A stretch of DNA of 64,000 nucleotides from an uncultured bacterium (lineage in GTDB: Bacteria; Omnitrophota; Omnitrophia; Omnitrophales; Abzuiibacteriaceae), in assembly GCA_964387845.1 (NCBI GenBank), contig CAYLXA010000013.1:25521-89520 (forward strand), read 5' to 3'. Position numbers and translations under genes: made by a program. Under the pieces are notes generated by a model, which saw only the letters and a list, made by a program, of their open reading frames with translations, did no database searches and was not told where the DNA came from. This document shows positions 17,489-64,000 of this stretch, in pieces (the stretch's first letter is position 1; every line of letters starts with the position of its first letter).

Positions 17489-17490
17489 CC

Positions 17491-18654: not shown

Positions 18655-18659
18655 TCTGA

Positions 18660-18710
18660 GGCGCAGCCGAAGAATCTAGATCCTTCGCTTCGCTCAGGAT
18701 GACGATTAAT
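18660..18710. repeat. Palindromic element between nuoC and nuoD, related to the elements at 32738 and 33528 (family G)
   Basis: tcgtcattctgaggcgcagccgaagaatctagatccttcgcttcgctcaggatgacga has a 13-bp outer stem with one mismatch. It shares the gtcatt..gaggcg / cgaag.aatct motifs with the repeats flanking 32893..33522. Confidence 0.55.
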
Positions 18711-20370: not shown

Positions 20371-23300
20371 TTAAACCGAGAGAGAAATTGTGGTTGGTGC
20401 TTTCTCGACTAAAATTTCAAAAAGGATTTCGAAAAATGTTTTCACCGGATTTCCGGAAGGTTTTGGGCCGCCGCGCAAACGGATCATTTCGCCGTTGAAT
20501 TTGTCCAATTGCTGTAATGACGCAACGCCGATTTGCAGAGGGGCGACACGGGTTGAGCTTTGGATTAAAGACTTGGCAGTTGAAATCGGTTCATTCTGAA
20601 CTACCGCAGATTCATCAAGCGTTTCCAAACCTCCGGTTATTGTAGCAATTGCACCGGAAACATTTGCTTTTGTATTGGAGGCAGCCTGTCGCGGAACATT
20701 GCCGCTGCCGGATGCTGCCGCAGGCTGTGTTCCAGGGCTTGGGTTATTATAGGGCACAATCACGCCGACAATTCCCGGCGTATAATATCCGCCTGTGTTT
20801 TGAGGATTTGCCGTCTCTTGCGGTGAACCGTTTTCCGGCCCGCCTTCGTCCGGATTGGAATCCGGAGGATTCTGGGTTTCACCGTTGGTAGCGGGGCTTT
20901 CCGGGATAACTGCAAATGTTGCTTCTATCGTATGATCAGAAGTGACGTTATTAAATGTATAACTCGAAACCGCGCCGACGGAGGTTGAATTCACAAGTAC
21001 ATCTTGGATTTCGTAGCGCGAATCGGGCGTAATTGTAAAAGTCGCATTGTCACCTTCGTTGACCACAACATCTCCAACCGGTGAAATTTGGCCGCCTTCC
21101 GAAGCGCTTGCGGTAATTGTGAAGGCTAGTGGATTACATGGAGCGCCTTCCGGGCAAATACACATATCGTTTGCTTCATCGCATTCTTCACCGGTGTCAC
21201 AGGCAGAAGTTCCGGATTGGCATCCTGCTGTTGCATTACAAGTCTCGCTTCCGTTGCAGAATAATCCATCCGAACAAATCGAATCATCCGGCGTATTGGC
21301 GCAGCCGTTTACGGAATCGCAGGAATCATTTGTGCAGGAGACGCCATCATCACACACAAGCGGTGCGCTCGCCTGACAACCTAAGCCGGGGTCACAGGTC
21401 TCCGTACCGTTACACACATTGGCGTCATCGCACACAAGCGGTGTTCCGGCCTGACAGGTATTATTTACACAAGCTTCAGCGCCGTTACATAAATTTCCGT
21501 CGCCACACTCCGAATCACTGATACAAGCAAAACACTGATCATTCGGTTCATCACAATGGTCCGGATCCGAGCAAGGCTCGGTTCCGTTTTGGCAAATTCC
21601 GGCAATACAAATTTCGGCTCCTGTGCAGAATAACCCGTCAGAACAGCTCATACCATCCACAACCGGGGTTGATTCGCAGCCCGTTGCAGGATCACAAGCT
21701 TCCGCGGTGCATGGATTGCCGTCATCACAGACAAGCGGCGCGCCTGTTTGACAACCCAGCGTTGAGTCGCAACTTTCAGGGCCGTTACAGACATTTCCGT
21801 CATCACATGTTAGCGGTATCCCGGATTGGCAACCCAAGGCAGAATCGCAGGTTTCTGTTCCGTTGCAGATGTTGCCATCATCGCAAACGAGAGAAGTTCC
21901 GGCTGTACAGATGCCTGCCTGGCAAGTTTCCGTTCCATTACAAGCGTTGCTGTCATCACAGTCGGAGTCATTAAGGCATCCTGTGCATTGATCGTTTGTT
22001 TCGTCGCAGATCAGGTTTGGTCCTGAGCAAGGTGCCGGATTTGATTGGCAACCCAGAGCGGCGTTGCAGATTTCAGCTCCCGTGCAAAATAATCCGTCCG
22101 AGCAAACCGAATTGTCTGTTGTATGCACACATCCGCTCAAAGAATCGCAGGAATCATTCGTACAAGCAATTCCATCATCACAATTAAGAGGAACACCCGA
22201 TAAACAACCCAAAGTTGGATCGCAAGATTCAATACCGTTACACGCATCGGCGTCTCCGCAGTTTAATGGCGCACCCAACTGACAGCCAAGGACAGAATCA
22301 CAGGTTTCTGTTCCGTTGCAGAGGTTGCCGTCATCGCAAGCAAGCGGAGTTCCTGGCTGGCATGAACCCGAGACGCAGGTTTCTGTGCCATTACAGGTAT
22401 TGTTGTCTGAGCAATTTGCATCGGTTAAACATGCTTGCACTACGATAGTGATTGCCGGTGAAAATCCGCTGCCGAAACCGCCATCCTGAGGCGGCTGGGA
22501 CCAAGCCTGTACACGGGCGTAGTAAGTTCCGGTTTGTGAAATTACAAACGGTTCAAAAATTCCCGATGGCCAGCGTTCATCGATATTCTGTACAAAATTT
22601 GGATCCGGCGACAATTGTACTTGATAGATCGCAGCGCCCGGAACCGCGTCCCATTCCAAATTGAATGCTCCTAAATTCGGCGAAGGCGGATTTGCGCTCA
22701 CGCCGGGCGGCGCCGAGAAATTCACGGAAATCATAATATCGTCGGAACCTGTGAGCATCGAGTCATCTGCGGTCAACCGTAATTGATAAGAACCCGGATG
22801 CGAAAATGTAACGGACGTGCTGGTATTGTTCGGCGGATTGAATGTGGCGATACCGCCGGAGCTGGTTACTTGCGACCAGCTGACCGTCACCGCACCGGGC
22901 GGATTCGGCAGACCATCATCCGTCACGCCGCCGTTAATGATTGCCGAAGTGCCGAAAGCGACGGTTTGATCATTTCCAAGGTCAACGGTTGGATTTTCAT
23001 TCTGTAAAGTCGATTGGTACTCATACGGACCGATGTCGGTTTGCGCATCGCGCGGGCGGTCTCTGACGTCGGTATGCAAATTCGGCATCGGAAATCCCGC
23101 GTCAATGGCGGCTGATTCGCTGTGCAAATCGTAATCGTTGACCGAAGGAGCTTCTGAAAAATTAACCATCAACACATCCGTTGCGGTTTGCAGGCTCGAA
23201 TATGTGTCGACGCCGTTGAGAAATGACCGCCAGTTGTTGAAATTGGTTATGGGATCTGGTGACGACCACTCGATCCCGCCGGCTGCGAAATACTGACAGT

Positions 23301-26300
23301 CGATATAGATATTGTTGTTGTGCTGAATCGCCGCAAAATCTGTGTAGTTGAAGTAAGCTGCGCAATAAGCCGGCGCCGCTTCTTTTTTGTAAACGATGTT
23401 GTTTAAGAACTGAATGTTGGGGGCGCTTGACGGACTTGCCTCTGCGCCGATGAGGACCACGTAACTATCGTATCCGTTGCCGATCAGTAAATTGTTATAG
23501 AATCGGCCGTTTTCTTGGACGTTGTCCAAAGACAAAGCTTTTCCGATCGATGCGTCTACCACGTTATTAAAGAATTCAATGTTGGAACCTATGCCGCCGA
23601 CCGTGCCGTTGATGTAATTGTTGTAATAGCGGCTGTTACGGTTGAGTTGAAGTGCGCCCGAAAGGCCGGCGTTGATCGTTATGTTGTTCGAAAATAAATT
23701 GCCAGCAGCATGTCCATAAATCACATGGCCGTATCGGTCATAGGTGTATTGCCAAGGATCTGATATTTCTGAAAGGCATATCTCAACAGGATAGCTGGAG
23801 TCGTCGGCAATGACGAGAGGCCCGATATTTTCAAATCGGTTGTTCTGATAAGTAAAATAGTTATCAATTGTCGGGTGGGGCGTTAGATCCGCGATACCCA
23901 TGCTATTAAGGCTTCTGAGAGTACTGTCATAAACTTCGATATATTGACCGGGATTTCCGCCGGGCAGCGGGTTCATTTTAATACCTTCCTCGCCATGCTG
24001 AATGGTTAAGCCGATGAAACGGATGTAGGATGCTGACGTGTAAAACCGGTTTTGTCCGGGAAAGTAAAACGAATGTTCTGACGGGTTGGTCCCGGACGGG
24101 AGGCGAATGTATAAGCGCCCACTTGTGCAATCGATAAAATAAGCGTTGAATGAAGTATTGGAATTCGGGATTGTTAATACATCAAGCATATCTTGATGAC
24201 GGAGCATGCGGCTGAAGGGCCGTTCAAGATCCATGATTATGCCTCTCGGATAATTTCCTTCACCGCCGTTTGCGTTAGGATCGTATGTTCCAAGCGATGT
24301 ATCAGTCCACCAGATTGAATAATTGCCCGCGTTTTCTGAAAATGTCCAGTTTGAAGGAATGCTTGCTCCCGAATCAATGACCGGTGTTTCGCCGGGATAG
24401 TTTCGAATGGTTACCCACTGATTCGGCGCTCCGCCGCGATCCATAAGGTTGTAGGATCCAAACGGCTGTGTTCCACCGCGGATGTAAACCGTATCTCCAG
24501 GATTGAGCTGATCAAACGTTGCGCTTACATTGCAAATCGGCTGGGCAAGAGATCCGGGGCCGCTGTTGCTGCACGCCGGATTATTTGCATCAACTACGTA
24601 GTAATTTCCCGCGCAATCGTTTGAACAATCAAAATGGCTTTCACGCCGGAGATCACAGTAACCGTCACCGCAAGTCCCGGCGCAATCCTGCGAGCAGGTT
24701 TGAACCGTCTCTGGCGCTTCACAAATACCGTCGCCGCAAAGTGCGGTAGTGGTAACCGAAAAAGACGCTTCAATGGTGTGGGTTGTTTGTACGTTGTTAA
24801 ACGTATAACTGGAAATAGCGCCTTGCGAAACGCTGTCGACGAGCACATCCGTAATTTCGTAACCGATATTGGGCGTGATTGTAAATATTTGATCGCTGCC
24901 TTCGGCAACATTGACCGTGCCGTTCGGTACAATGTAGCCGCCGTTATTTGCTGTTGCATTAATTGAATGTGAAGGGCCTTCTACTTGGCAGATTGAGCTG
25001 CAGCCGTCGCCGCTTGCCGTATTGCCGTCGTCGCAAGTTTCATTGCCGACGACTAAACCGTCACCGCAAATTGGATTACATTCTGGGTTGCTGCCGGGAT
25101 TTACAGTGTCAACGGAACAGGTCCAACCGGCCTCGTAATAAATCGTGTCTTGCATAATGGCCGAAATGTTTCCAACACTATCAATCAATCTGGCAAACAC
25201 TGTCCGTTCACCGCTCGGCCCGCTGGCAAGTTTCCAGCGCATGACGTTTTCATACGGAGTCGGGTCACTCCAAATTGTTCCGTTATTAGAAAATATTACG
25301 GATGTGATCGAGGATCCGCCTGAGTCAGAAACCGTTAAGTAGATATGCGAGTCTAACGAATAAGTAACCGCCGCGTCATTCTCAATCAGTATTGTTCCGC
25401 TCGGCGGTTCAAGATCAACGACAAACTGAACCACATTGGAATATTCGGTTGGGTTCCGCCCAAGTTGAAACGGCGGCACGGGCGGTGATTCCCATCCGCG
25501 CACGCGGGCGTGATAAGTATTTGAGGTGCTCAACGAAACAGGAACAAACGTATCGTTTGACCAAAGAGTCGTAACATTGGAAGCAAAATTAGGGTCGGTT
25601 GAAATTTTGATTTCGTAAGCATTTGAGCCCAGCGACGGAGTCCAAGCGAGATTAAAATCGCCGTCATTGGGCGTTGCGGGTTGCGCCAGAACAGGCTGGA
25701 CGGCGGCTTGTGACGCAAAAGCCCCAATGTGGCAGCCTGTGCTTCCGGTTGGCGTGACGGAAACATTAAAACCGTTTTCGATGACATTAAGGCACATGCC
25801 CGAGTGGCTTGCAGGACTGCCCGGTTGAAGATTGAAATCAGCGTTTGCGAGATCCACAAATTGCGGATCTGCTTGAATATTTGAATCTGCCAGATTGAAG
25901 TTATTAAAATCAGCTACTGAGTAAAGCCCGCTCACCACGATTTGCCCGTTTCCGCCGCCATCTTTTAAAGCTCTAATAACCGAAGTTTCGTGGGCCGGAT
26001 TAGACGAGTAAATCAAATTATTTCGAATGTCATCGCCGTATCCGCCAAAATTCGTATCAACATATTCCAGCGGATCGTAATGAAGCATTAGTAGCTCAGC
26101 ATTGAAAGTATTGCCGAAAGAGACTGGTGAAACATAATCATGGTTGGCATCCATCAAAATATTGTTCCAGATGCGGACATTATATATAGCATTCAGGGCG
26201 TCCGGAGGATTCCAGTTGAAATTGGCAGTATAAATTCCACGCGGCCCCGGACTGTGAATGGTATTGTTAAAGATGTATACGTCCTGAATTAAATTTTGGT

Positions 26301-29300
26301 CAGCAACATTTGCAACGAGCGTGATTCCGGTAGAATCGTTAAATCCGTCATAAATAACGTTATTGTAAATGTAAAGTCGTTCTGTTTTTCCGGGCCCGAT
26401 TTGAATTGCGCCGCCGCGGTGATTTGATTCTGAAGGGAATTGGTTGGTTCCAAAAAACGTGTTATTTCGAATAATCGTATTTTGTGAAATGCCGGGATTT
26501 CCGTCAATTGAACCGATGCCGAATGAAGTGTGAAACCGATTTCGGAATGTATTATTCTCTATTAAAACATTTTCAGAATTCCGGAAACCGACAGTTCCAT
26601 GTCCGCAATCACCGAACCAGCTGTTTTTAATAGTCGTATTTCTTGCATCATCGCCAACAATTCCGTCAACGCCGCCGCCGTTCATCAGAAGCAAGCTCGG
26701 GCTTGCCGTGCAATTTAAATTTAAATTGTCAATCTCTACTCCATCGGTATCGAGAACTTTAATTCCGTTTGCCCAAGGTTCCGCGTAACTTTGCTCCGGC
26801 GGCCAGCGGTGGCCAATGCCGATATCATCATTTCCGGTGAATGAAGTGACTGATATATTTTTGAGCTTGACGCCATTTGACCGTTGAATGCCAAGCACGT
26901 AGGGTGCATACAATCTTCCGCCTGCGGTATCGATATGCCCAATGAAATTTAATGAATCAAAAGTAATGTCGTTTGCCAAATAAGTTGTCAGCATATATAT
27001 GCCGATATTGCTGCCTTGAGCCGTCATACTGCTGCCGTGTAAATTCACGGTTTCATTCGGATAGCCGCGAATCGTAATCGGGTTTGCCTCAGTTCCCGAA
27101 CTTCGGATGACAATAAAATTGTTTGCATCAATGTAGGGGAGGAAGTAATCGCCGCCCCGAATGTAAACCGTATCGCCGATATTTAATTTTTCATAAGGAG
27201 ACGTTTCACGAAGCGCTCTCGGCGTGCACCACGGCGTATTGGGATCGAGTGCTTGAGTTCTTGAGTAACTGTCCGAACAGTCACAATTATTTTGATCAAT
27301 GAAAAGCATATTAGTTCCGTTCGCAAGCTCTTGCGGGTCGGAACTGCCGACCGTGCATCCGCCTTCGGATTGGCTTGTATATTCAAATGCGCCGGGCGCG
27401 CAACTTCCGCTTTCAGGACGCGGATTTCCGTCAAAATCCACCGCAACTTCCGGAAGACAAGGGACCGAGCCGATCGCAGGGCTGTCCTGCTGTAAATGAA
27501 AATCGCCGATACCAGCGTTTACGAAAAGCGGGTTGCCGTCTACGTTGTCTTCGGCGAATGACAGTGCATTAAATTCGTCGATGGTGTAGTGATAACGCTG
27601 CGTGTTCCGATTGTTGGTGCTTTGGACCGGGTCTTCGGCAGGATTGAGTTCTTTGACCCAGTTATTTTCAAACACATTTCCATAGCCATTTTGGCCTTCA
27701 AAATCCCAGCCGCCCAGCCGGATTTCGCCGTGAATTTGTTCTCCTTCGCCCGTATAAGTTTGAATTCCGTAGAAAATATTATTTTTGATTTGATTATTAT
27801 TGGCCCAATTATTTTGGCCGAAAACGCCGTTATTGCCGACGCTCATGTTGGCGTAGCCTGTGTTGTAAACCGTGTTGTGAAAGATTTTATTGTTGTTGGC
27901 TTCAAAGAATCCGGTGCCGGGCCCGTTTTGATCCTGAGAATTGGCAATCGAAATTCCGTTTCCATTTAATGCGCCGTTGTAAATCACATTGTTATAAATC
28001 AGGTTGTCACTGGCCCCCAAAATCTGAATGCTGTTTGCGCGAAGCGTGGTCTCCGAAGGAATTGAATTGTAAGTATGAAACGTGTTATTCCGGATGATGT
28101 TATCGTGAGAACCGACACCAACGGCGATATTGGTATGGAGCGTATTTGAAAAATCATTATTTTGCACCAAAACGTCATGCGTATTAAAACGAAGCACAAG
28201 TAGAATGTGGCCGCAGTCACGGAATGTATTGTTTTCGATTAAGCCGCCCGAGACATAATCCATCATGATGCCATCGCCGGAATAGCGGTTGTCCGGGTTA
28301 ATTTGATCGTTAACTTGCATGCATCGGAAAAAACTATTCTTCACTGTGATGTTGCTTGCATTATCAAATTCGATGCCGTTGCCATAAGGTGCATTAGGAG
28401 CGCGATCGTCGTAGCCGATGTCATCGGTGCCTTTGAAGTCAACAACCGAAATGCTGTCAAATACAATATCGCTGCTTCCGCTGACAACCTCAATGACTCG
28501 CGGGCCATACAATTTTCCGTTTGGGTTACCAACATCCACGTTGCCGACAAAATGAAGATTTTCAAATGTGATGAAATGAACGTCATTCAGAACAAATGTG
28601 CGTTCGAACGCTGTGTGCGCACCGCGGATGACTGCCGTTTCGCCGGGATATGAAGTGAATGTAATTCGGTTGCTATCGCTTGTGCCCGATGAATTGATTC
28701 TGACTGTGGTATCGACGATCGGATATTCACCGCCGCGAATATAAACGGTGTCGCCTGCGTTTAATTTGTGATTGGGCCGGTTTTCATGAAAGCCAAGAGG
28801 CGAACACCAGGGTGTATAAGGATCGCGTGCCGCATACCGGTCTCCAGCGTCGCTGCAGTTGCAATTATTTTTATCCACAAAGAGAACATTGGCGCCGTTG
28901 GCAAGCCCTTGCGGGTCAGAGCTTCCGGCTATGCAGCCTCCGAGCTCTGATGGGTGATTGTTGGGATCGTTGGGATTAAATCCGCCTGCAAATTCTTCAC
29001 CGTCTGAGTAGCCGTCACCGTCTGTGTCCGGATTATTAGGATCCGTGCCGTTTTGAAATTCCTGCAGATTGATAAATTGATCATTGTCCGGGTCATCCGT
29101 GCCGTTTTGATTGAGATTGCCGAAGTGCAGCATTTCCCAAACGTCCGGCAAACCGTCTTGATCTGTATCTGAAGTGTCGTTGTAAACATACTCGAATGGA
29201 CCGATGTCGCAGGCAGCGCCTTGCGGCCGGATATGGTTGTCAAAATCAAAATCTACTTCAGGAACACAGATTCCGGCATCCACTGCCGAGCTTTGCTCGG

Positions 29301-31257
29301 TTGGGTGAAAATCGTGATTCTGCGGATCGACAAATAAAGGCACGGTTCCGAGATTATCTACGATTGTTCCAGTCCCAAAAAGGTTATCCAGATTTTGAAG
29401 TGTGTAATCAAAGTGTATATACGGAGGATTGGAAGTTCCAAAATTTCGCGTAGACATCACAAATCCGCCCGGGTTGTCAGTCACCAGCAAATTATTTTTG
29501 ATTTCATTTCCGTAACCCTGATTGGGTTCGAAGCCATAAATATCAAAGAAAATAGGACGGTTGAGATAATACGCATATGTCTGAGAGTAAGGTCCGTCGG
29601 CAGCTCCGCCGGTTTTAAGCTGGATGATATTGTTTTGCACTTTGTTGTCATGCACATAATTGGTATTTGGCAACAGGACGTCATTTATATCCGGACGATT
29701 ATTAAACTCAATCGCTTTTACCATAGAGTTGTGCGTGGTTGCTGTCGGGTCGTCCATATAAATTAAATTATGATAAACCTGGTTCCGGTCGGAATTCGAA
29801 TCGCCGTTTCCGATAAAAGTAATGCCGTGCAAGGAACGCCGCCTCGGCTCGTCAGCGTCGTAGTAAATGATGTTGTTGTGGATTTGGCTGTCGGAAGCCG
29901 AGAGCATTTCAATGGCATGGCCGCCTTGGTTTCCCGTGGTCGGGTACACATTCCAGTTGTAAATCAAATTATTTTTAATAGTCATTTGACTGCCGCCGAA
30001 TGCAAAGCAGGTATGAAGTTCGTTATTACAGGAATTATTTTCAACCGTTATGTTGTCAGACCATCTAACCGTTAAGCTGATATGTCCGCAATTTCCAAAA
30101 GTACTATTTTTTACGCTGCCACCGGATACGCGATTAAATTGAATCCCGTCGCCCGAGAAGCGAAAATCTTCGGTCGGGCGCTCAGAGTATTCAGAGCAGC
30201 TGACAGATGCATTCTCGATTTTAATATTAGAAACGTCATCAAATTGTATTGCACTCCCCCAAGTTTCATAGTCTTCCCCGGTTTTCCGCCACCTAAAGCC
30301 GTAACCGATGTCATTGAGGCTTTGAAAATTAAGAACGCTTGTATCTAAAATTTGAATATCTTGGGCTGGATTTCCAACAGTCCCGCTAATTCTCAACGGA
30401 TTCGGCATGTAAAGTCTGCCTTCCGGCGTATCTTCATAGGCAATAAAATTAAGCCCCTTTAACGTAATGTAGCTGGCGTTATTCAAGATCAGAATCCACG
30501 AATAATTATAAGAGCCGCCGCGTATGGTAACCGGCTCATAACCACTCGGTTCAGTTTGAGAGGGATATGCTTGGATCGTGATCCGCTGCGCAGGCCCGGC
30601 GCCGGACGTATTAACGCTCGCATTATGTTCCGTATAGTCGCCGCGGCGAATGAAGACTGTATCGCCCGGATTCAATTTATGGTTTGGCCTGTATTCGGTT
30701 AACCCGCGCAAACTACACCACGGTGTTGCGGGATTTAAGGCTTCCGGGCGTTCACGGTTATCGCGGCAATTACAATTGCTCTGATCGACAAACAGAACAT
30801 TCAGCCCATTTGCCAAATTCAAAGGATCTGTATTGTTGTCACACTGACGAAGTGGAATACTGCTTGCGTTGGTCGGGCTACTGCCTAATCTGATCTCGTC
30901 GTCATCATTGACGCCATCTCCGTCTGTGTCATATCCGATGTTTCCGTTGCCCACAGTTGGATTGGTATTAAAAGCAACTTCCCGAAAGTTGGGCACTCCG
31001 TCTCTATCCGGATCGTCGTATTGATCATAACTTGTGATATCGCCAAAGTATTGAATTTCCCAATCATCTGAAAGGCCATCAAAATCAGTGTCAATTTCAC
31101 CGGCGGCAATTTGGGGAAGGGGAATGCCCATGAAGACGAGCGTGAAAATAATGATCAAAGAAACAAAATCAGAAAGAAATTTGGAAACAACTTTCTTGAA
31201 CTGCCGGGATTTTATTTTTTTTTTGTGTGATTTATCTGATTCGGAGCTTCGTCCCAT
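20371..31257 (-). CDS. Giant secreted multidomain surface protein (3628 aa). It has TSP3-like Ca-binding repeats, four pectate-lyase-type beta-helix modules, FN3/PKD-like domains, InlB-B-type repeats, a Myxococcus-type Cys-rich repeat and a Dictyostelium/EGF-like Cys-repeat region.
   Basis: A single uninterrupted ORF with an N-terminal signal/anchor ([18 protein letters not shown]). It has DxDxDGxxDxxE motifs and repeated NxxxN/right-handed beta-helix signatures. The module-start motif LANGxNVLF(V/I)DxxNC(N/D)C...TPWC...GDTVYIRGG occurs three times. A CGDGxxxxxExCDDGNxxSGDGCSxxC unit is present. About 20 CxxGxxxxxCDDGNxCTxDxC-like units lie between ~22435 and ~21130. Confidence 0.85.
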   Translation of the reverse strand: [3628 protein letters not shown]

Positions 31258-31512: not shown

Positions 31513-31576
31513 TTCAATGGCTCCAAAGCAATTTTAACTGGATATTAATAGCAGTTTGAGTCATCAGGAGGTTGTT

Positions 31577-32101
31577 ATGTCAGTACAAGTAGGTTCACCC
31601 GCGCCCGATTTTAAAATGCAGGCCGTTGTGGATGGCGGAAAGTTCCAAGATGTAAAGTTGAGCGATTACAAAGGAAAATGGGTGGTGCTGTATTTTTATC
31701 CGCTCGATTTTACCTTTGTTTGCCCGACGGAAATCACGGCTTTTCGTGAAAAATTGGAAGAGTTTAAAAAGTTAAATACTGTCATTGTTGGAGCCAGTAT
31801 TGACAGCGTTTATTCGCACAAAGCTTGGATCGAGCAGCAGCTCAAGGATTTACACTATCCTTTGGCAAGCGATCTTTCAAAGGATGTTTCACGTCGCTAT
31901 GGAATTCTCTTGGAAGAAAAGGGAATTACACTTCGCGGAACTTTCATCATCGATCCGAACGGTATTTTGAAATGGCAGCTTGTCAACGATCTCGGAATCG
32001 GACGCAATGTGGATGAGGTTTTGAGAGTGCTCCAAGCGCTTCAGACCGGCGAGCTTTGCCAGGCCAACTGGAAGCCGGGCCAAAAGACCTTAGGCAAATA
32101 A
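31577..32101 (+). CDS. Peroxiredoxin (typical 2-Cys Prx/AhpC family)
   Basis: It has FTFVCPTEI around the peroxidatic Cys and a resolving Cys near the C-terminus. The start is set at the Met after the RBS, which gives MSVQVGSPAPDFK. Confidence 0.85.
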   Translation: MSVQVGSPAPDFKMQAVVDGGKFQDVKLSDYKGKWVVLYFYPLDFTFVCPTEITAFREKLEEFKKLNTVIVGASIDSVYSHKAWIEQQLKDLHYPLASDLSKDVSRRYGILLEEKGITLRGTFIIDPNGILKWQLVNDLGIGRNVDEVLRVLQALQTGELCQANWKPGQKTLGK

Positions 32102-32285
32102 ACTAGTTCAGATTTTAAAAAAATAGCCCACGCAAAGAAAAAGCGTGGGTTATTTTTTTGTGTCCTTTTGCTACATTTTTAGGTGTAGTTTAAGGAAAAA
32201 CCAGATCAAAATTCGCCGTAAAAATCTTTTATTCACTTGCCAATTTAGGCGCGGTCGGTATAATAACCGCCCTTTTGAGGAAACC

Positions 32286-32729
32286 ATGATTAAAGTAGCC
32301 AGAACAAGAAAACCAAAGAAACAGCACGTCGAAGCGGTTGCGGCGTTAATCCGCAACGAAAAGGACGGTTCTTTCTTTATTACCCAGCGGCACTTGGATG
32401 ATTTTTTAGGGGGGCTTTGGGAATTTCCGGGCGGAAAGCGCCGCCGCGGTGAAAGCTTTGAGCAAGCACTTCGCCGGGAAGTCAAAGAAGAAACTGACTT
32501 GATCATTGAAGTGGGCGCCCGTCACCGCGCGTCGTCATTCGAATATCCTGACCGTGTTGTAAATCTTTATTTCTATTGGGCTCGTGTTTTAAAGGGAAAG
32601 CCCAGAGCGATTGGCTGCCGCGATTTTAAGTGGGTCCAGCCTGCCGAACTTCTCAATTATACGTTCCCGCCGGCAGATGCCGAGTTGATTTTGGAACTTT
32701 CCAAGCCGACTGAGCTATTCTGCAACTAA
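32286..32729 (+). CDS. Nudix hydrolase (MutT-like)
   Basis: It has the Nudix box GGLWEFPGGKRRRGESFEQALRREVKEETDL. The start is placed at the internal Met MIKVART. The upstream part of the longest ORF looks noncoding. Confidence 0.7.
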   Translation: MIKVARTRKPKKQHVEAVAALIRNEKDGSFFITQRHLDDFLGGLWEFPGGKRRRGESFEQALRREVKEETDLIIEVGARHRASSFEYPDRVVNLYFYWARVLKGKPRAIGCRDFKWVQPAELLNYTFPPADAELILELSKPTELFCN

Positions 32730-32737
32730 GCTAGTAC

Positions 32738-32830
32738 TGTCATTGCGAGATACGTTATTTGGTATCGAAGCAATCTCGGTACTTAGATTGCTTCGGCACT
32801 GCACAACGCGCCTCGCAATGACGACTTGAC
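32738..32830. repeat. ~90-bp palindromic intergenic repeat (family G), copy 1
   Basis: gtcattgcgag ... agattgcttcggc ... aacgcgcctcgcaatgac. The outer arms are inverted repeats of each other. About 40 nt are near-identical to the copy at 33586..33625. Confidence 0.7.
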
Positions 32831-32892
32831 CTTCCTTAGCAATTTGACGATAATCAATTCATCGATTTTTTGATAACCAGGAGGAGGAAAAT

Positions 32893-33522
32893 ATGGCGTT
32901 GTCCGATCTTTATAGCAATTTTCATTTGTTTTTCAGATGGCTTCACGTATTTGTCGGTATTATTTGGATCGGCCATCTGTATTTTTTCAATTTTGTGAAC
33001 GTCCCGCTTCAAGCCTCACTAGATGATGCCGGCAAGAAAGTCGTCAACCCAAAACTGATGCCGCGCGCACTTTGGTGGTTCCGCTGGGGCGCCATGCTCA
33101 CGTTTATTTCCGGGTTGATTCTTTATACGATGATTTACATGTATACGCCGGGAGCCGGATTTGGCCCTTCATCCGCGTTTCGTGATCTTTTCGGTAATAT
33201 TACGGGTAGATCAATTTGGATTTTAATCGGAATGTTATTTGGCACGATTATGTGGTTCAACGTGTGGTTTATTATTTGGCCTGCTCAGAAAGCTCTTTTA
33301 TCCGGAAAAGTTCCGGCCGATCAAGCCGCCGGCGTTCGCCGCAGAGCCTATTTGGCGTCACGTACAAATACCTATCTGTCGGGCCCCATGCTTTATGGTA
33401 TGTTGGCTCCGGGGCATTACGGCGCGTTTAGCTGGGTGACGTTTTTGGTGTTTGGTTTGGTGGCGGTGGCCTTGATTTTCCACGCCATTCAGAAATCCCC
33501 CAAAGTCGGTACGTCAGTTTGA
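32893..33522 (+). CDS. Polytopic membrane protein, possibly of the HemJ/UPF0093-like family
   Basis: The 209-aa protein has 4-5 TM helices. Its first helix has the F-W-L-H-x-F-V-G-I-I-W-I-G-H-L-Y-F pattern, reminiscent of HemJ-type proteins. An RBS GGAGGAGG sits 6 nt upstream. Family G repeats flank the gene on both sides. Confidence 0.55.
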   Translation: MALSDLYSNFHLFFRWLHVFVGIIWIGHLYFFNFVNVPLQASLDDAGKKVVNPKLMPRALWWFRWGAMLTFISGLILYTMIYMYTPGAGFGPSSAFRDLFGNITGRSIWILIGMLFGTIMWFNVWFIIWPAQKALLSGKVPADQAAGVRRRAYLASRTNTYLSGPMLYGMLAPGHYGAFSWVTFLVFGLVAVALIFHAIQKSPKVGTSV

Positions 33523-33527
33523 TCTAA

Positions 33528-33625
33528 TCGTTATTGCGAGGCGCCTTAATCAGCGTCGCGGCAATCCCTGTTCTGAGATTGCTTCGGCGTTAATCAACGC
33601 GCCTCGCAATGACAGTTCAATTTAT
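33528..33625. repeat. ~95-bp palindromic intergenic repeat (family G), copy 2
   Basis: ttattgcgaggcgcc ... agattgcttcggcgttaatcaacgcgcctcgcaatgac. It has the same architecture as copy 1 and sits between convergent genes. Confidence 0.7.
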
Positions 33626-33634
33626 ACTTTAAAA

Positions 33635-33892
33635 TTATTCTAATTCCTGCAAAAACGAATTCCGGCTTTTCAAATCGACAAACACAACCTGGTCTGGATA
33701 ATTTAACCCCGCTTCACTGACAAATACTGTGGTGCCGTTGATCTGAAACGCCATTACCTCGCAACCCTCGATGGGAAGTTTGTTCCCGCCCCCTATGATT
33801 TTATCGACAATTTCCTGGCTTACGGCTTTGGCTTTTTGGCCGCGCGCGTCGAGGTAATTCACCAGGATTGTCTTTAGGTCTTGGATTGTCAT
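33635..33892 (-). CDS. Small hypothetical protein (85 aa)
   Basis: An ORF with a LacI-type palindromic operator 29 nt upstream. I recognise no family. It does not end in GG, so it is not a ThiS/CysO-type carrier. Confidence 0.45.
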   Translation of the reverse strand: MTIQDLKTILVNYLDARGQKAKAVSQEIVDKIIGGGNKLPIEGCEVMAFQINGTTVFVSEAGLNYPDQVVFVDLKSRNSFLQELE

Positions 33893-33952: not shown

Positions 33953-34966
33953 TCAATCCGATTTTCTTATAACCAATTCCGGATCAAATTTGGTTTGAAC
34001 AGGAGCTTTTACCTTATTTGTCACTAAGTTAATTAGAGTTTCGCATGCAGTGCGTCCCATGGTTTCGAGTGGTTGGCGCACGGAAGTAAGCGGCGGCGTG
34101 AACGTTTCGTTTTTAGGCGAGTCATCAAAGCCGGCGATGGCTACATCATCCGGGATGCGAAGCCTCGCTTCTTTGATAGCACGGACAGCTCCCCGTGCCA
34201 AATCATCATTGGCGCAGAAAATCGCGCGCGGCAGTTTCTTATTTTTAATCCAATTTGCAGTTACGACAAAACCATCTTGTTCGTCAAACCGGGCCGCTTG
34301 CGGTAAAAATTCATCACGAAGCTTAAATTTTAGATTTCTTGAAGCGGATTTAAATGCTTTGAATCGGGCTCTTGCGTCCAGGGAAATATACTCCGGCCCT
34401 CTGAGCATCCCGATGGTTCGGTAACCCCGCCTGATGAATCGTGAACAGATGGCTTCGACTCCGCTTTGATTACTGCAGTAAACGATACTGGATTTAACGC
34501 TAGGCTCATAGTCATTAATGAGCACGACGGGAAGTTTTGAATGAGTTTCGATTTCCCGGATTAATTTTGGGAAGAGGCGCCAGGTCAAAAAAATGATGCC
34601 ATCAACAGCGTGTTTCTGCAGAAGGTCTTTGAGGTTGCATTGTTCAATTTCAGCATCGCGGATCATGATCCATTTCAAATCATATGTGCAAGCGTACATT
34701 CCTGTGATGATTCCCGAAATAAGGCCTTCATAGTAATTGCTTTTCACAAGATCGGTTGAAAATGGCGTCACCATGCCGACCGTGTTGGTGGTTTGCTTGC
34801 TCAGCGCGCGCGCAGATTGACTGGGAATGTAATTGAGTTTACGAATTACTTTTTCAATTTGTTTTTGCGTTTCGGAGTGCACAAGGTGCTTTTTGTCGGG
34901 ATCCATGTAGCGGGATATGCTTGCTACCGAAACTCCCGCTTGCTTTGCCACATCTCTGATTGTTGC
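33953..34966 (-). CDS. LacI-family transcriptional regulator
   Basis: The N-terminal HTH reads MATIRDVAKQAGVSVASISRYM, followed by a periplasmic-binding-protein-like sugar-binding core. The start is set at this Met (track residue 22). Confidence 0.8.
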   Translation of the reverse strand, partial: ATIRDVAKQAGVSVASISRYMDPDKKHLVHSETQKQIEKVIRKLNYIPSQSARALSKQTTNTVGMVTPFSTDLVKSNYYEGLISGIITGMYACTYDLKWIMIRDAEIEQCNLKDLLQKHAVDGIIFLTWRLFPKLIREIETHSKLPVVLINDYEPSVKSSIVYCSNQSGVEAICSRFIRRGYRTIGMLRGPEYISLDARARFKAFKSASRNLKFKLRDEFLPQAARFDEQDGFVVTANWIKNKKLPRAIFCANDDLARGAVRAIKEARLRIPDDVAIAGFDDSPKNETFTPPLTSVRQPLETMGRTACETLINLVTNKVKAPVQTKFDPELVIRKSD

Positions 34967-34982
34967 CATAAAGCTCCTTTTT

Positions 34983-34996
34983 TGTAACCGGTTACA
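34983..34996. promoter_or_regulatory. Second identical palindrome TGTAACCGGTTACA, 17 nt upstream of the LacI-family gene start. Likely an autoregulatory operator.
   Basis: An exact copy of the 33921 site, in the divergent region between the regulator and the sulfite reductase gene. Confidence 0.55.
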
Positions 34997-35255
34997 TTGG
35001 AAAGGTAGCACAGCTTTGCCCTTTGTCAAGGTGCCGATTTATGAGTGCGCCGCGTTTTTGAAAAACAGGTTGGCCGGTCGATATATTCGGCCGGATTGTC
35101 GGATATGCGGGAGATGTATTTTTTAAGTTTATCGAGATAAGCCTATAACTGACTATATTAGTCGGAATTTGGTTTGACAGTTCCGCCGAAGTGGACTATG
35201 ATAGGCGTCACTTTCAGCAAGATTCCAAGCCGAGAGTCCCCAAATAAGGTGAAAA

Positions 35256-36983
35256 ATGCTCGATAAATTGGTATTGCCTTCAGAAATTAAGAAGTTTGAG
35301 GAGATGGTGATTAAGCTCGAAAAGGGCGAAATCTCATCCGATGAATTCAAAAAATTCCGCCTCAATAATGGTGTCTACGGAATCCGCAATTCTGACGACA
35401 CCCACATGATCCGCATTAAAATCCCGTTCGGCGCTTTGAGTTCCGAACAGCTGGAAGCCATTGCAGATGCGACCGAGAAATACGCGCCGCTGAAGATGGG
35501 GCACGTCACGACCCGTCAATGTATTCAGGTTCACAAGATCAAGCGCGAAGATGTTGCTAAATATTTGGATATCATCGGAAAAGCCGGTGTCACGAGCCGT
35601 GAAGCGTGCGGCAACACAGTTCGAAATGTGACCGCATGTCCCTACGCAGGTGTTTCAAAATCCGAAGCTTTTGACGTGAGGCCCTACGCTGAAGTCATAG
35701 TCGAATATTTTCTGCGCAATCCGCTCAATCAAAATTTACCGCGGAAATTCAAAATCGCACTCGAAGGATGCCCGGAAGATCACGCACGCACGCCGATTCA
35801 TGATTTGGGGCTTGTGGCTGCGATTCGCAAGGTGAACGGAAAAGAAGAGCGCGGCTTTAAAATTTATGCGGGCGGCGGCTTGGGAAGCCACCCGGTCAGC
35901 GCCGTGCTGCTCGAACCTTTCACGCCGATGGAACTCGTTTTGCCGACGTGCGATGCGACGGTCCGCATTTTTGAGCGCCACGGAGACCGCAAGAACCGTT
36001 CACGTGCTCGGATTAAGTTTTTGCTTGAAGATTGGGGCGAAGAAAAATTCCGCAAAGCGATTTTAGATGAGCGGGCTGCTGTTCTTTTCACACGATCGGG
36101 CCTAGCGTATCCTAAATTTGATATTCAGGACGAAAAACCGCCGGTTGTAAAAGAAAAGGCTGAAAAAGTGACATCGCCTGCGTTCGAAAAGTGGCGAAAG
36201 ACCAACGCGGTTGAACAAAAACAAAAAGGTTTTTACTCGGTCGCAATCCGCTGCCCGCTGGGTGATGTGACGGTTTCCCAGATGCGCGATATCGCAAAAA
36301 TCGCGCGCAAATTCTGCGGAGGCAGAATTGTAACTACTATCACACAAAATTTCATATTCGCGTGGGTGCACGAAAATTATCTGGGGTCTGTTTATAAAGA
36401 GCTCGAAAAAATTAATCTCGCATTTGATGGCGCCGAGCGCTTCATTGATGTGACGCGCTGCCCGGGAGCTGACACTTGTAATCTCGCGATTACAAAATCG
36501 CGCGGGCTTGCGCAGGCAGTCGATCAGCTTTTCAATAACGGATTGAGCCCGCTTTCAGATCTCGAGGGAATCGACATTAAAATTTCAGGCTGCCCGAATT
36601 CTTGCGGCCAGCACCATATTGCTTCGATGGGTTTTTACGGAACTGCCCGGAATGTAAACGGAAAACTCGTGCCGCACTATGAATTAATGATCGGCGGCGG
36701 AACGGTAGAGGGAAAAGCCACGTTTGGCGTTGCCACGATCCGGATCCCTGCGCGCAAGACGCCGGATGCCGTCAAACACTTGGCCGGCATTTATCAAAAG
36801 GAAAAAAAGTCGGACGAGACATTTAATCAATTCGCTGCCCGCATCGGAAACGAGCGGATCAAGAAAGAGCTCGAACCGTTTACGCATTTGGAAGCGTATG
36901 ATACCGATCCCGAAAACTATCAGGATTGGACCGACGAAGCACCGTTTAAACTTCAGGTCGGCAAGGGCGAATGTGCAGCTTAA
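35256..36983 (+). CDS. sir: Ferredoxin-dependent sulfite (or nitrite) reductase hemoprotein (siroheme-[4Fe-4S])
   Basis: The 575-aa protein has two NiR/SiR repeats. Cluster-ligand motifs are CPGADTCNLAITKSRG and GCPNSCGQHH. Confidence 0.8.
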   Translation: MLDKLVLPSEIKKFEEMVIKLEKGEISSDEFKKFRLNNGVYGIRNSDDTHMIRIKIPFGALSSEQLEAIADATEKYAPLKMGHVTTRQCIQVHKIKREDVAKYLDIIGKAGVTSREACGNTVRNVTACPYAGVSKSEAFDVRPYAEVIVEYFLRNPLNQNLPRKFKIALEGCPEDHARTPIHDLGLVAAIRKVNGKEERGFKIYAGGGLGSHPVSAVLLEPFTPMELVLPTCDATVRIFERHGDRKNRSRARIKFLLEDWGEEKFRKAILDERAAVLFTRSGLAYPKFDIQDEKPPVVKEKAEKVTSPAFEKWRKTNAVEQKQKGFYSVAIRCPLGDVTVSQMRDIAKIARKFCGGRIVTTITQNFIFAWVHENYLGSVYKELEKINLAFDGAERFIDVTRCPGADTCNLAITKSRGLAQAVDQLFNNGLSPLSDLEGIDIKISGCPNSCGQHHIASMGFYGTARNVNGKLVPHYELMIGGGTVEGKATFGVATIRIPARKTPDAVKHLAGIYQKEKKSDETFNQFAARIGNERIKKELEPFTHLEAYDTDPENYQDWTDEAPFKLQVGKGECAA

Positions 36984-43428: not shown

Positions 43429-44361
43429 ATGAGCAGCAGAATTTATAACTCCATCGAAGAAGAAATTGCGGCGCTGAAAAAAGAGCGAAACGCGATTATT
43501 CTGGCGCACAATTATCAAGTCGGCGAAATCCAGGACATCGCGGATTTCACGGGTGATTCGCTTAAACTTTCTCAGCAAGCGGCCAAAACGGATGCGGATG
43601 TTATTGTTTTTTGCGGCGTTCATTTTATGGCTGAGACTGCGAGTATTTTATCGCCCAACAAAAAAGTTCTGATCCCTGATATGGACGCCGGATGTTCACT
43701 TTCCGGAATGATTAAGCCCGAAGACGTTCGCAAATGGAAAGAAGCACATCCCAATGGTGTGGTTGTGACTTATGTCAATACCTCCGCGCAAGTCAAAGCC
43801 GAGTCTGACTATTGCTGCACGTCCTCCAATGCTGTGAAAGTGGTTGAAAGCATTCCGCGCGATAAAGAAATTCTGTTCGTTCCTGATTTTTATTTGGGAT
43901 CTTACGTTAAAAAGCAAACCGGCCGCACCAACATGACGGTTTGGAACGGTTATTGCCACGTTCACGTGATGATCAGCTCCCAAAAAATCGATGAAATGCG
44001 CCACGAACATCCGAAGGCGGAAGTTTTGATGCATCCGGAATGCAGCTGCATGACGAAAGTGATGGATAAAGCGGATCAAGTTTTATCAACGGAAGGCATG
44101 GTGAAGCATGTCCGTGATTCCAAGAAAAACGAATTTGTGATTGCGACTGAAACGGGCGTTATTCACAAAATGGAAAAAGAAAATCCCGGCAAAAAGTTTT
44201 ATCCGGCGGTTCAGCAGGCCGTTTGCGGTTACATGAAGCTCAACACGCTTGAGAAAATTGTACGCACACTTGAGAAATTGCAGTACGAAGTAAAAGTCCC
44301 GGAAGATATTGCGCGCCGAGCGCGTATTCCGATCGAAAGGATGCTTCAAATAGTTCCATAA
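43429..44361 (+). CDS. nadA: Quinolinate synthase
   Basis: The 310-aa NadA fold has three repeats. It starts directly at the thiC stop. Confidence 0.9.
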   Translation: MSSRIYNSIEEEIAALKKERNAIILAHNYQVGEIQDIADFTGDSLKLSQQAAKTDADVIVFCGVHFMAETASILSPNKKVLIPDMDAGCSLSGMIKPEDVRKWKEAHPNGVVVTYVNTSAQVKAESDYCCTSSNAVKVVESIPRDKEILFVPDFYLGSYVKKQTGRTNMTVWNGYCHVHVMISSQKIDEMRHEHPKAEVLMHPECSCMTKVMDKADQVLSTEGMVKHVRDSKKNEFVIATETGVIHKMEKENPGKKFYPAVQQAVCGYMKLNTLEKIVRTLEKLQYEVKVPEDIARRARIPIERMLQIVP

Positions 44362-44468
44362 ACTTAAATTCAAATATCAAATTTCAAATATCAAAATTTC
44401 GCTTGTTTCGAATTTTAAATTTTTGTGATTTGAATTTGTTTTTAATTTTGAAATTTGGATTTTGATAT
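44362..44468. repeat. AT-rich ~100-bp imperfect-palindrome repeat (family F), copy 1, upstream of ispG
   Basis: caaatatcaaatttcaaatatcaaaatttcgcttgtttcgaattttaaatttttgtgatttgaatttgtttttaattttgaaatttggattttgatatt. It is ~90% identical to the copy at 45535..45640. Confidence 0.7.
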
Positions 44469-45534
44469 TATGAATAAACGACGCAAATCCAGACAAGTTA
44501 CGATCGGCGGTTTAACGCTTGGCGGCAATGCCCCGATCCGAATTCAATCCATGACCACCACGCACACGCGCGATGTGGCCGCAACGGTGAAACAAATCAA
44601 TGAACTTGCTGAAGCCGGCTGCGAAATGGTCCGCGTCGCATGTCCCACGGAAGAAGATGCCAAATCACTTGGCGCTATCAAGAAGCAAATCAAAGTTCCG
44701 CTCATTGCAGATATTCATTTTAATTATAAACTCGCGTTAATTGCGCTTGAAGAAGGTGTTGATAAATTGCGCCTGAACCCGGGCAACATCGGCGGCCGAG
44801 ACCGCGTTGAAGCAGTTGTCGCAAAAGCCAAAGAGCGCAAAGTGCCGATCCGGATCGGCGTCAATGGCGGTTCGCTCGAGAAAGATTTGATGGAAAAATA
44901 TGGGCCGGTTCCGCAAGCGATTGTGGAAAGCGCGCTTCGCCACATCAAAATTTTAGAAGACGTTGATTTTCACGACATCATCGTATCGCTCAAAGCGAGC
45001 GATGTTCCGACGATGATTGAGAGTTACCGTCTGGCGGCCAAAGCATTTGATTATCCGCTTCATTTAGGTGTTACGGAAGCCGGAACATTACTTCGCGGCT
45101 CGGTCTATAACGCGATCGGCGTCGGAAGTTTGCTCTATGACGGTATCGGCGACACCATTCGAATTTCTCTCACGGCGGAATCTGTGGAAGAAGTGAAAGT
45201 TGCGCGTTTTATATTGGAAGCCATCGGCCACCGGAAATTCGGACCGCGCGTGATTGCGTGCCCGAGCTGCGGCCGTGCGGAAGTCGATGTCTTTAAACTC
45301 GCGAATGAAGTCGAAAACCGTGCGATGAAATTGAAAGACCCGATGGTGATTTCCGTTTTAGGCTGTGTCGTCAACGGCCCCGGCGAAGCGCACGAATCTG
45401 ATTTCGGCATCACGGGCGGGAAAGACAAAGGCATGGTTTATATTGATGGTCAGCAGCACAAAACAGTTCCCGAAGAAAAGTTGGTCGATGAACTTTTTAA
45501 CGAAATCGAAAAGAGAAAGAAAAAGCAACCGTAA
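44455..45534 (+). CDS. ispG: 4-hydroxy-3-methylbut-2-en-1-yl diphosphate synthase (MEP pathway)
   Basis: The 359-aa GcpE protein starts QVTIGGLTLGGNAPIRIQSMT and has the C-terminal Cys triad CPSCGR...GCVVNGPGE. Confidence 0.9.
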   Translation: MDFDIMNKRRKSRQVTIGGLTLGGNAPIRIQSMTTTHTRDVAATVKQINELAEAGCEMVRVACPTEEDAKSLGAIKKQIKVPLIADIHFNYKLALIALEEGVDKLRLNPGNIGGRDRVEAVVAKAKERKVPIRIGVNGGSLEKDLMEKYGPVPQAIVESALRHIKILEDVDFHDIIVSLKASDVPTMIESYRLAAKAFDYPLHLGVTEAGTLLRGSVYNAIGVGSLLYDGIGDTIRISLTAESVEEVKVARFILEAIGHRKFGPRVIACPSCGRAEVDVFKLANEVENRAMKLKDPMVISVLGCVVNGPGEAHESDFGITGGKDKGMVYIDGQQHKTVPEEKLVDELFNEIEKRKKKQP

Positions 45535-45640
45535 TATCAAAATTCAAATTTCAAATATCAAAATTTCGTTCGTTTCGAATTTTAAATTTTATAATTTGAA
45601 TTTGTTTTGAATTTTGATACTTGAGTTTTGAATTTATAAA
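45535..45640. repeat. AT-rich ~100-bp imperfect-palindrome repeat (family F), copy 2, downstream of ispG
   Basis: tatcaaaattcaaatttcaaatatcaaaatttcgttcgtttcgaattttaaattttataatttgaatttgttttgaattttgatacttgagttttgaattt. Confidence 0.7.
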
Positions 45641-46728: not shown

Positions 46729-46800
46729 GGCAAGTTGTAAGTGGTAAGTGATAAGTGTTAAGTTAATCAAATTACTTAGCACTTACAACTTAGCACTTAG
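46729..46800. repeat. Family T (TAAGT-heptad) palindromic element between the two radical SAM genes
   Basis: gttgtaagtggtaagtgataagtgttaagttaatcaaattacttagcacttacaacttagcacttagcac. Confidence 0.65.

Positions 46801-63437: not shown

Positions 63438-64000
<563 letters not shown>

Follow-up and report, generated by a model that had tools for sequence, protein, structure and literature searches.

Two palindromic elements beside a membrane-protein gene of an Omnitrophota bacterium are probably copies of a very widespread family of CGTC-tagged, REP-like hairpin repeats

Introduction

The closest described relatives of the elements reported here are the CGTC-tagged repetitive extragenic palindromic (REP) sequences (Di Nocera, De Gregorio & Rocco 2013, BMC Genomics 14:522, PMC3733652). 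As characterized there, these repeats carry a terminal CGTC, replaced by TGTC or CCTC in many copies, an 8-9-bp stem starting with A-T pairs, a 4-5-nt loop and a CCA tail. They are described as mostly head-to-head dimers, often heterodimers, placed downstream of open reading frames (ORFs) and between unidirectional and convergent genes; four families in five phyla are given, with no dedicated transposase, and these include dRS3 of Neisseria and RPE-4/RPE-6 of Rickettsia. Here we analyze a stretch of 64,000 nucleotides from an uncultured bacterium of the Omnitrophota (contig CAYLXA010000013.1, positions 25,521 to 89,520; hereafter the window), in which a gene for a 209-aa membrane protein is bracketed by two palindromic elements, A and B, of a repeat family called family G, with a related element inside the nuo operon.

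A previous reading of this DNA, made from the sequence only, had proposed that the pair might be bidirectional terminators or insulators, or the footprints of two miniature inverted-repeat transposable elements (MITEs) that mobilized the gene. From the distribution, architecture and gene context of the repeats, we put at about 0.8 the probability that A and B are instead copies of a very widespread family of intergenic, REP-like, CGTC-tagged hairpin repeats.

Results

Elements A and B are head-to-head dimers

The two elements (A, 32739-32822; B, 33530-33613) are direct copies of 84 nt each, with 75% identity and starts 791 nt apart. With the tags (one base each) included, they are composed as follows.

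32738-32823, no strand: element A, head-to-head dimer; its tag begins 8 nt past the stop codon of the NUDIX gene (32727-32729)
32738-32777: left unit of A, TGTC-ATTGC-GAG-[ATAC..GTAT]-CGAA-GCAAT-CTC, followed by a spacer at 32778-32783
32784-32823, - strand: right unit of A, CGTC-ATTGC-GAG-..-CGAA-GCAAT-CTA
33529-33614, no strand: element B, head-to-head heterodimer; begins 6 nt past the stop codon of the 209-aa gene (33520-33522)
33529-33568: left unit of B, CGTT-ATTGC-GAG-..-CGCG-GCAAT-CCC, followed by a spacer at 33569-33574
33575-33614, - strand: right unit of B, TGTC-ATTGC-..-CGAA-GCAAT-CTC

Both elements are imperfect palindromes whose arms, 38 and 37 nt long, show 76-78% complementarity, and the folding energies of the corresponding RNAs, on either strand, range from -41 to -49 kcal/mol (z = -7 to -8.8), a stability reached by none of 200 shuffled sequences. 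The right halves of A and B contain a common 38-nt core, AGATTGCTTCGGC-N6-CAACGCGCCTCGCAATGAC, which is identical except for the six central bases and has two matches in the window versus 0 expected. The outer box GTCATTGCGAG, when one mismatch is allowed, has four matches, every one in the arms of A and B, versus 1.17 expected. The sequence-only reading was therefore right about the two palindromic copies, the near-identical core of about 40 nt and the inverted repeat within each element, and the RNA-folding check that it had suggested agrees with it, but its right-hand limits (32830 and 33625) were 7-11 nt too generous.

The arms belong to a family found in about ten phyla

Matches to GTCATTGCGAG-N40-70-CTCGCAATGAC, the paired outer boxes, were found in at least 120 stretches of IMG/VR, and a stricter pattern for the right unit, GATTGCTTCGGC-N4-16-GCGCCTCGCAATGAC, was matched in GTDB species genomes, where at least 119 stretches have it. 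Two Logan contigs are the only retrieved loci that overlap the window. Parsing yielded complete dimers from Chloroflexota (19 loci), Alphaproteobacteria and other Pseudomonadota (51 loci), Gammaproteobacteria, Desulfobacterota, Planctomycetota, KSB1, Calditrichota (Calditrichia), Omnitrophota and ANGP1; with Gemmatimonadota and Bacteroidota, which were added by inspection, about ten phyla are represented overall. The REP-family alternative, which the sequence-only reading had left to a census of copies, is thus supported for the arms, which recur in hundreds of unrelated contigs. The family also occurs in cultured isolates and is therefore no binning artefact: Novosphingobium resinovorum has it in at least 40 places on one 1.76-Mb replicon, and further carriers are N. 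aromaticivorans (pNL2, in a dioxygenase operon, where the copy separates two cistrons), Methylosinus trichosporium OB3b and Methylobacterium oryzae. Genomes vary widely in copy number, and the copies are mostly dispersed singly rather than in arrays.

Rfam gave no match at the elements with gathering thresholds over the whole window, and none with permissive E-values over 32600-33750. Full-text literature searches for the arm sequences and their peptide footprints returned primer coincidences or nothing.

At two IMG/VR loci (L094, 3052-3440; L104, 3197-3995), family-G dimers are nested or form tandem clusters, with three copies 156 nt apart, in the manner of bacterial interspersed mosaic elements (BIMEs).

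The conserved structure is that of the single unit

The anatomy of the family was parsed from 254 distinct copies. The layout comprises an outer box (GTCATTGCGAG / CTCGCAATGAC), a variable segment, preferentially 5, 11 or 15 nt long, an inner box (CGAAGCAATC / GATTGCTTCG, or alternatively CG(C/T)GGCAATC / GATTGCC(G/A)CG) and a variable central spacer. All four 5-bp boxes are canonical in 221 of the 254 copies. The element is preceded by C in 61% of copies and by T in 35%, which gives the CGTC or TGTC tag, and the base following it is G or A. The variable parts track the base composition of the host, and the boxes are nearly invariant across phyla.

Each unit of about 30-40 nt consists of an unpaired tag (C/T)GTC, the stem strand ATTGC, GAG, the variable segment, CGAA, the stem strand GCAAT and a tail CC(A). 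Folding gives a 5-bp stem, a GAG/CGAA internal loop and then a variable distal mini-hairpin, often closed by a GNA triloop; minimal units have this triloop on a 2-bp stem, and the units in the window have 8-nt loops on distal stems of 4-5 bp. The six window units (two each in A, B and the nuo copy) have the tags TGTC, CGTC, CGTT, TGTC, CGTC and CGTC and stems that begin with A-T and T-A pairs (ATTGC/GCAAT, ATTCT/AGAAT, ATCCT/AGGAT). Their 3-nt tail is CTC, CTA or CCC, and that of most family members is GCAATCCAG.

All three window copies are dimers, as are most copies elsewhere, where singletons are few. Heterodimers, in which the variable segments differ by at least 4 nt in length, account for 198 of the 254 copies, and the nuo copy follows the same pattern, joining an ATTCT/AGAAT unit to an ATCCT/AGGAT unit. 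Among long variable segments, 46% form a palindrome of their own with a stem of 4 bp or more, versus 3.5% of shuffles, and many have a GNA triloop, as in CCCC-GAA-GGGG and CCAC-GCA-GTGG. Where the 5-bp stem has a double change, compensation is always within the unit (ATCGC/GCGAT): this is the case at L155 and L168, and also at L127, L223, L230 and L181; none of the 254 copies shows compensation across the dimer. Because heterodimers are so frequent, long variable segments are palindromic, compensation occurs within units and the six window units fold into one common architecture, the comparison shows the unit hairpin, and not the long hairpin alone, to be the conserved structure.

Heterodimers show an orientation bias (loci L003-L241): the unit that faces the stop codon of the upstream gene is the one with the CGAAGCAATC inner box in 23 cases and the one with CG(C/T)GGCAATC in 6. 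No such bias was seen for the placement of the long variable arm (46 versus 56).

Gene order is conserved in relatives while A and B come and go

Conservation of the locus, which the sequence-only reading had named as a check, was examined in seven related Omnitrophota contigs whose homologues share 78-93% identity with the 209-aa protein. The order NUDIX-209aa is kept in all seven and AhpC-NUDIX-209aa in all six that reach far enough upstream, while most of the contigs do not have one or both of A and B. The spacer between the NUDIX and 209-aa genes has no trace of A in four of them (L242, L243, L246 and L249), and a 525-kb contig with the gene order of the window (L245; JGI 3300028648 Ga0268299_1000036) contains only the right half of A. 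Among these relatives, B occupies its orthologous site only in L245; at that site, L242, L243, L244, L246 and L249 have hairpin-plus-T-run terminators or other palindromes. Since gene order is constant and the elements vary, A and B have been inserted into a locus that is itself stable.

The copies of B in the window and in L245 differ at 2 of 42 box positions and at 11 of 42 variable positions (manual count on the alignment), which argues that the boxes are constrained or homogenized.

Elsewhere in the family, 34 adjacent pairs of copies bracket one ordinary gene; the genes between them are of various kinds, among them phage portal genes and, in an Omnitrophota metagenome-assembled genome, rimP. 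As such pairs are common, the bracketing of the 209-aa gene is coincidental: two neighboring intergenic gaps each hold a copy.

The NUDIX-209aa spacer seems to be an insertion hot-spot. In L244 (5436-6000) it is enlarged by a GC-rich block of about 565 nt, and in L248 (4786-5000) it contains a composite palindrome of about 170 nt with CGTC-1-like ends, GTCATCCCCG...GCGGGAATGAC. Behind the 209-aa gene of L248 (5630-5730) lies an element similar to another palindromic family of the ATAGCGTTTAGGGGATAG ... CTATCCGCTA type, which occurs in the window at 52703-52775 and 54106-54170.

Related dimers replace one another between nuoC and nuoD

The element inside the nuo operon, GTCATTCTGAGG...CTCAGGATGAC, belongs to a sister family and lies between nuoC and nuoD, which are encoded on the - strand.

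18649-18704: related head-to-head dimer in the nuoC-nuoD spacer, with tails that overlap in CTAG
unit on the + strand: CGTC-ATTCT-GAG-GCGCAGC-CGA-AGAAT-CTA
unit on the - strand: CGTC-ATCCT-GAG-CGAAG-CGA-AGGAT-CTA
18634-18636, - strand: start codon of nuoD (MEHNLL...), the probable true start, with its ATG at 18636

Its tag stands 8 nt after the nuoC stop codon (18713-18715, - strand), and its predicted RNA folds with -29 to -31 kcal/mol (z = -4.7 to -5.4). The sequence-only reading had described it as a shorter relative at 18660-18710; the location was inexact, but the kinship holds, since the frame is the same and the sister genome L251 has a true family-G copy in that very spacer. The ORF finder places the nuoD start at 18654 (-), an ATG that is part of the repeat arm (ATGAC) and by which the protein would gain MTTKIN; the real start is probably the ATG at 18636, and 18654 a misannotation induced by the repeat.

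The same junction differs among relatives. In L253 (70% NuoC identity), nuoC and nuoD have no spacer, and stop and start overlap as taATG. The window has the ATTCT/ATCCT dimer, and L252 (85% NuoC identity) has a classical CGTC-1-type dimer, CGTCATCCCCGC...GCGGGGATCTAGATTCCCGCTTTCGCGGGAATGACA (also given as ATTCCCGC-N4-GCGGGAAT), at precisely this position and with the same flanks, taagaattaat on one side and aataaat...ATGgaacataa on the other. The true family-G dimer of L251 (86% NuoC identity) is accompanied by a spacer of about 75 nt with two extra hairpins. The distance from stop codon to element is again 8 nt for three copies in L251 and L252. The nuoD-nuoI spacer of L251 (4290-4460) contains another family-G dimer, where the window has an unrelated palindrome (17423-17493). 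Members of one superfamily that replace each other at one intergenic site, with flanks still alignable, indicate turnover. A dimer hairpin that draws its flanks together may explain why an insertion is tolerated between the translationally coupled nuoC and nuoD, which is speculation.

The palindrome at 17423-17493, in the spacer between nuoD and the next gene, belongs to a second palindromic family of the window, with AAGTTGTAAGTGGTAAG... arms, whose other member is at 46732-46791.

Family-G copies are intergenic and show no target-site duplication

Family-G copies are intergenic and depleted between divergent genes: flanking gene pairs are tandem in 103 cases, convergent in 25 and divergent in 12, versus 530, 154 and 165 intergenic gaps of these kinds at the same loci, according to a crude ORF-based call. 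Of the 121 copies initially flagged as genic, most owe this flag to ORFs extended too far at gene ends. Measured from the closest upstream stop codon of a long open frame, the distance to the element has its peak at 5-10 nt, and it is 8, 6 and 8 nt for the window copies.

No target-site duplication was found among 251 copies, and the borders show direct repeats of 2-5 nt no more often than shuffled pairings do. No autonomous insertion sequence with the same terminal inverted repeats was seen near 280 copies. The only recurrent neighbor families are phage structural ones (portal, capsid, terminase and gene transfer agent genes), which reflects the sampling from IMG/VR.

The bracketed gene and its surroundings

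Apart from A and B, the locus consists of the following features.

31556-32101, + strand: AhpC gene
32117-32159: canonical bidirectional intrinsic terminator (A-run, GC hairpin, T-run), right after AhpC
32286-32729, + strand: NUDIX hydrolase gene, whose stop codon precedes A
32826-32854, + strand: sigma70-like promoter match TTGACC-17-GATAAT, directly downstream of A and kept in relatives with and without A
32893-33522, + strand: gene for the 209-aa membrane protein, Pfam PF06181 (Urate_ox_N / PuuD-like membrane domain), bracketed by the repeats and outside them
33635-33892, - strand: 85-aa ORF, convergent with the 209-aa gene, with B between the two 3' ends
33953-35029, - strand: LacI gene
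35256-36983, + strand: sulfite/nitrite reductase gene

The interval between A and B contains the 209-aa ORF, its AGGAGGAGG ribosome-binding site and the sigma70-like promoter match, and nothing else. The sequence-only reading thus correctly saw a single membrane-protein gene with a ribosome-binding site, but its assignment to HemJ finds no counterpart in Pfam: the sole match is PF06181 Urate_ox_N (E = 1.8e-22), with none to PF03653 (UPF0093/HemJ), and NCBIfam gives no match. NCBI gives the name "urate hydroxylase PuuD [Candidatus Omnitrophica bacterium]" to a homologue with 70% identity, and close homologues number in thousands. NuoC homologues bear the same organism label, which makes an Omnitrophota genome the most likely source of the window. 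Given the position of the promoter, A is flanked by the stop codon of the NUDIX gene on one side and by the promoter of the 209-aa gene itself on the other. B is separated from the 3' end of the 85-aa ORF (33635) by 20 nt (33615-33634).

Further features of the window lie outside this locus. An ORF of 3628 aa (20371-31257, -), with beta-helix/Pel9A-like repeats and DUF4215, stands between the nuo operon and AhpC; its counterpart in the sister contig L245/L251 has 3181 aa, and in the other relatives it is absent, nuo genes or TPR/DsbD genes preceding AhpC in its place. Downstream of the nuo genes and just upstream of a 493-aa ORF (8335-9816), a match to the nhaA-I RNA lies at 9860-9913 (-) with 44.1 bits versus the Rfam gathering cut-off of 37. 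An AT-rich palindromic family with AAATTCAAATATCAAAATT arms (44359-44470 and 45535-45635) occupies the spacers among three tandem ORFs of about 360 aa (44455-45534, 45640-46728 and 46813-47913), which are thus also "bracketed" by hairpins. A perfect 18-bp inverted repeat, AAAATAAAGGACGCCCTT / AAGGGCGTCCTTTATTTT (63269-63312), precedes by about 125 nt the start of a 16S rRNA gene (63438-64000) that runs off the window.

Discussion

Alternative explanations

The most obvious alternative is that A and B evolved locally as bidirectional terminators or insulators of the 209-aa gene, with the nuo copy as an attenuator. They are indeed very stable hairpins right behind stop codons, and B lies between convergent genes, at a site where relatives have a terminator, and is conserved at the orthologous site in a sister genome. 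However, no T-run follows the stem on either strand (the tails are GACTTGACC and AGTTCAATTT), a terminator scan calls neither element, and canonical hairpin-plus-T-run terminators exist in this genome, such as the one after AhpC, which shows that ordinary terminators are used where needed; those relatives that are without B have terminators of this kind too. Termination at the nuo copy would split the operon, A stands upstream of the promoter that the gene itself has, relatives of the same gene order have no A or only half of it, and the presence of the same boxes in some ten phyla speaks against a local origin. We therefore consider this proposal of the sequence-only reading unlikely. It is slightly less probable still that the boxes are sites for a conserved host DNA-binding protein of the nucleoid or gyrase type (compare the BIMEs of E. 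coli), kept for chromosome organization. Such sites would account for boxes that stay near-invariant while the variable parts follow the host, for the roughly fivefold lower divergence of the boxes of B between sister genomes and for the lack of an RNA strand bias, but not for a presence that varies between close relatives, for families that substitute for one another at the same site or for copy numbers that differ so greatly between genomes; moreover, the compensated changes keep intrastrand hairpins and not a fixed duplex sequence.

A MITE pair, a composite transposon that brought the membrane gene here and left A and B as its ends or footprints, was suggested by the two similar inverted-repeat elements around one gene with its own promoter and ribosome-binding site. 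The conserved AhpC-NUDIX-209aa order in relatives, most of them without A and/or B, contradicts this idea, as do the missing target-site duplications, the lack of a transposase recurring beside the copies and the single housekeeping or phage genes, rimP for example, that commonly stand between two copies elsewhere; we regard a gene-mobilizing pair as very improbable. We give even less credence to integron-like attC sites, with the gene as a cassette in an integrase-less attC cluster: the elements are imperfect palindromes of attC-like length that bound a single ORF, but they end in (C/T)GTCATT...AATGAC(G/A) and not in RYYYAAC...GTTRRRY, they are conserved in sequence across phyla where attC sites conserve structure, the gene stands in conserved synteny, and the copies are dispersed singly without arrays. 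Readings as CRISPR and as integron attC sites were also rejected by inspection.

Several observations count against the interpretation that A and B are REP-like family copies. The 64-kb window contains only two family-G copies and one relative. When the 795 ORFs that lie within 1.5 kb of copies were clustered all against all, no recurrent transposase emerged, and we infer the mobility of the family from presence and absence alone. The unit hairpins, by nearest-neighbor DNA parameters, have energies of only -2.7 to -8.1 kcal/mol, with z-scores that are not significant versus shuffles, and the RNA folding energies of sense and antisense strands do not differ (n = 153 copies with a defined upstream gene, p = 0.57). 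In L245, B is kept with its boxes almost untouched although the flanking protein is only 79% identical, and this retention could reflect a local function rather than pure selfishness. Finally, compared with the 8-9-bp stems described for CGTC REPs, family-G units have 5 Watson-Crick pairs followed by an internal loop and a separate distal stem, and the 4-5-nt loop given in that description is not found in them.

A possible mechanism

As copies of such a family, the elements would be non-coding dispersed REP-type repeats and not gene-specific regulatory sites. They would spread, and replace one another, by a process that leaves no target-site duplication and is directed at hairpins in single-stranded DNA, with a trans-acting enzyme that may recognize the unit hairpin and the tag, by analogy with the cleavage at the GTAG tag by REP-associated tyrosine transposases (RAYTs). 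Once transcribed, a dimer would form a hairpin of -30 to -49 kcal/mol just behind the stop codon, which could act as a barrier to 3' exonucleases or as a pause site for ribosomes or polymerase, rather than as a factor-independent terminator, and might protect the upstream mRNA, by analogy with E. coli REPs.

We tentatively suggest a more specific version, in which family G is an uncatalogued pan-bacterial branch of the CGTC REPs whose 21 box nucleotides are kept nearly invariant across about ten phyla by a widespread enzyme acting on single-stranded DNA hairpins, which exchanges whole dimers precisely between the outer tags. Such an exchange would account for the three different CGTC-type dimers that three sister genomes have at the same nuoC-nuoD position, 8 nt past the stop codon. 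To our knowledge, no enzyme that mobilizes the CGTC superfamily has become known since 2013.

Significance

For this locus, the outcome is deflationary: the gene was not mobilized, and the hairpins are probably generic repeats. For annotation, the units matter in that they create spurious ORFs and false start codons, such as the nuoD ATG at 18654, and identical strings of 20-40 nt across many phyla can mislead k-mer classification and metagenome binning. With regard to the orphan-transposase problem, a conserved and widespread branch offers a strong handle on the mobilizing enzyme by phylogenetic profiling. The replacement of families at the same site and the fixed spacing of about 8 nt from the stop codon point to a precise mechanism of insertion or exchange, and the same features may be part of the reason why essential operons tolerate insertions between cistrons.

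Comparison with described repeat systems

Rho-independent terminators resemble A and B in having a stable GC-containing hairpin shortly past a stop codon. They differ by their U-tract, which A and B do not have, and the stems of A and B are far longer (arms of about 38 nt), with boxes shared across phyla and an intercistronic relative in the nuo operon. MITEs, such as the Correia elements of Neisseria and the cyanobacterial Nezha, are likewise small, non-coding, intergenic and hairpin-forming in transcripts, with terminal inverted repeats, but they have target-site duplications and share their ends with autonomous insertion sequences, neither of which was found for family G, among 251 copies and near 280 copies, respectively.

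GTAG REPs and the REP doublets forming hairpins (REPINs), which are mobilized by RAYTs, are closer: they are short intergenic palindromes with an unpaired 5' tetranucleotide tag, placed behind genes, whose inverted dimers form long hairpins, and they show lineage-specific gain and loss without target-site duplication. Their tag is GTAG, in contrast to (C/T)GTC in family G, and they depend on a RAYT (TnpA-REP, a tyrosine HUH transposase); no RAYT gene flanked by family-G units was seen in the loci examined. Families of GTAG REPs are usually genus-specific, unlike the boxes of family G, which are common to many phyla.

The closest match is with the CGTC REPs as described in PMC3733652. Family G has in common with them the tag, the ATT...AAT stem, head-to-head dimers able to form one long hairpin, the frequent heterodimers, the placement behind ORFs in tandem and convergent gaps and the occurrence in several phyla, although about ten phyla for family G compare with the five reported there. 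The tail is CCA-like in most members of family G and reads CTC, CTA or CCC in the window units, and no recurrent transposase was found among the 795 neighboring ORFs. From peptide footprints in Additional file 3 of that paper, we rebuilt consensus sequences for CGTC-1 (VIPAKAGI / DSRFRGND: GTCATTCCCGCGAAAGCGGGAATCC) and CGTC-3 (VIAGLDPAIH: GTCATTGCCGGGCTTGACCCGGCAATCCA); the footprints of family G (VIASEAKQS, ..ARND and ..LAMT) are absent from the list of intragenic copies in the same source. Because the stem and loop lengths differ from those described, we did not file family G under the four described families. It apparently lies within the frame of the CGTC superfamily and outside these families, as set apart by their stated features and footprints and not by consensus figures; some overlap is possible, for example with CGTC-2, homodimers of which are listed for N. 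aromaticivorans, a carrier of family G. Taken together, family G is ordinary in kind, and appears to be an uncatalogued set of repeats that is unusually conserved across phyla, with replacement at the same site.

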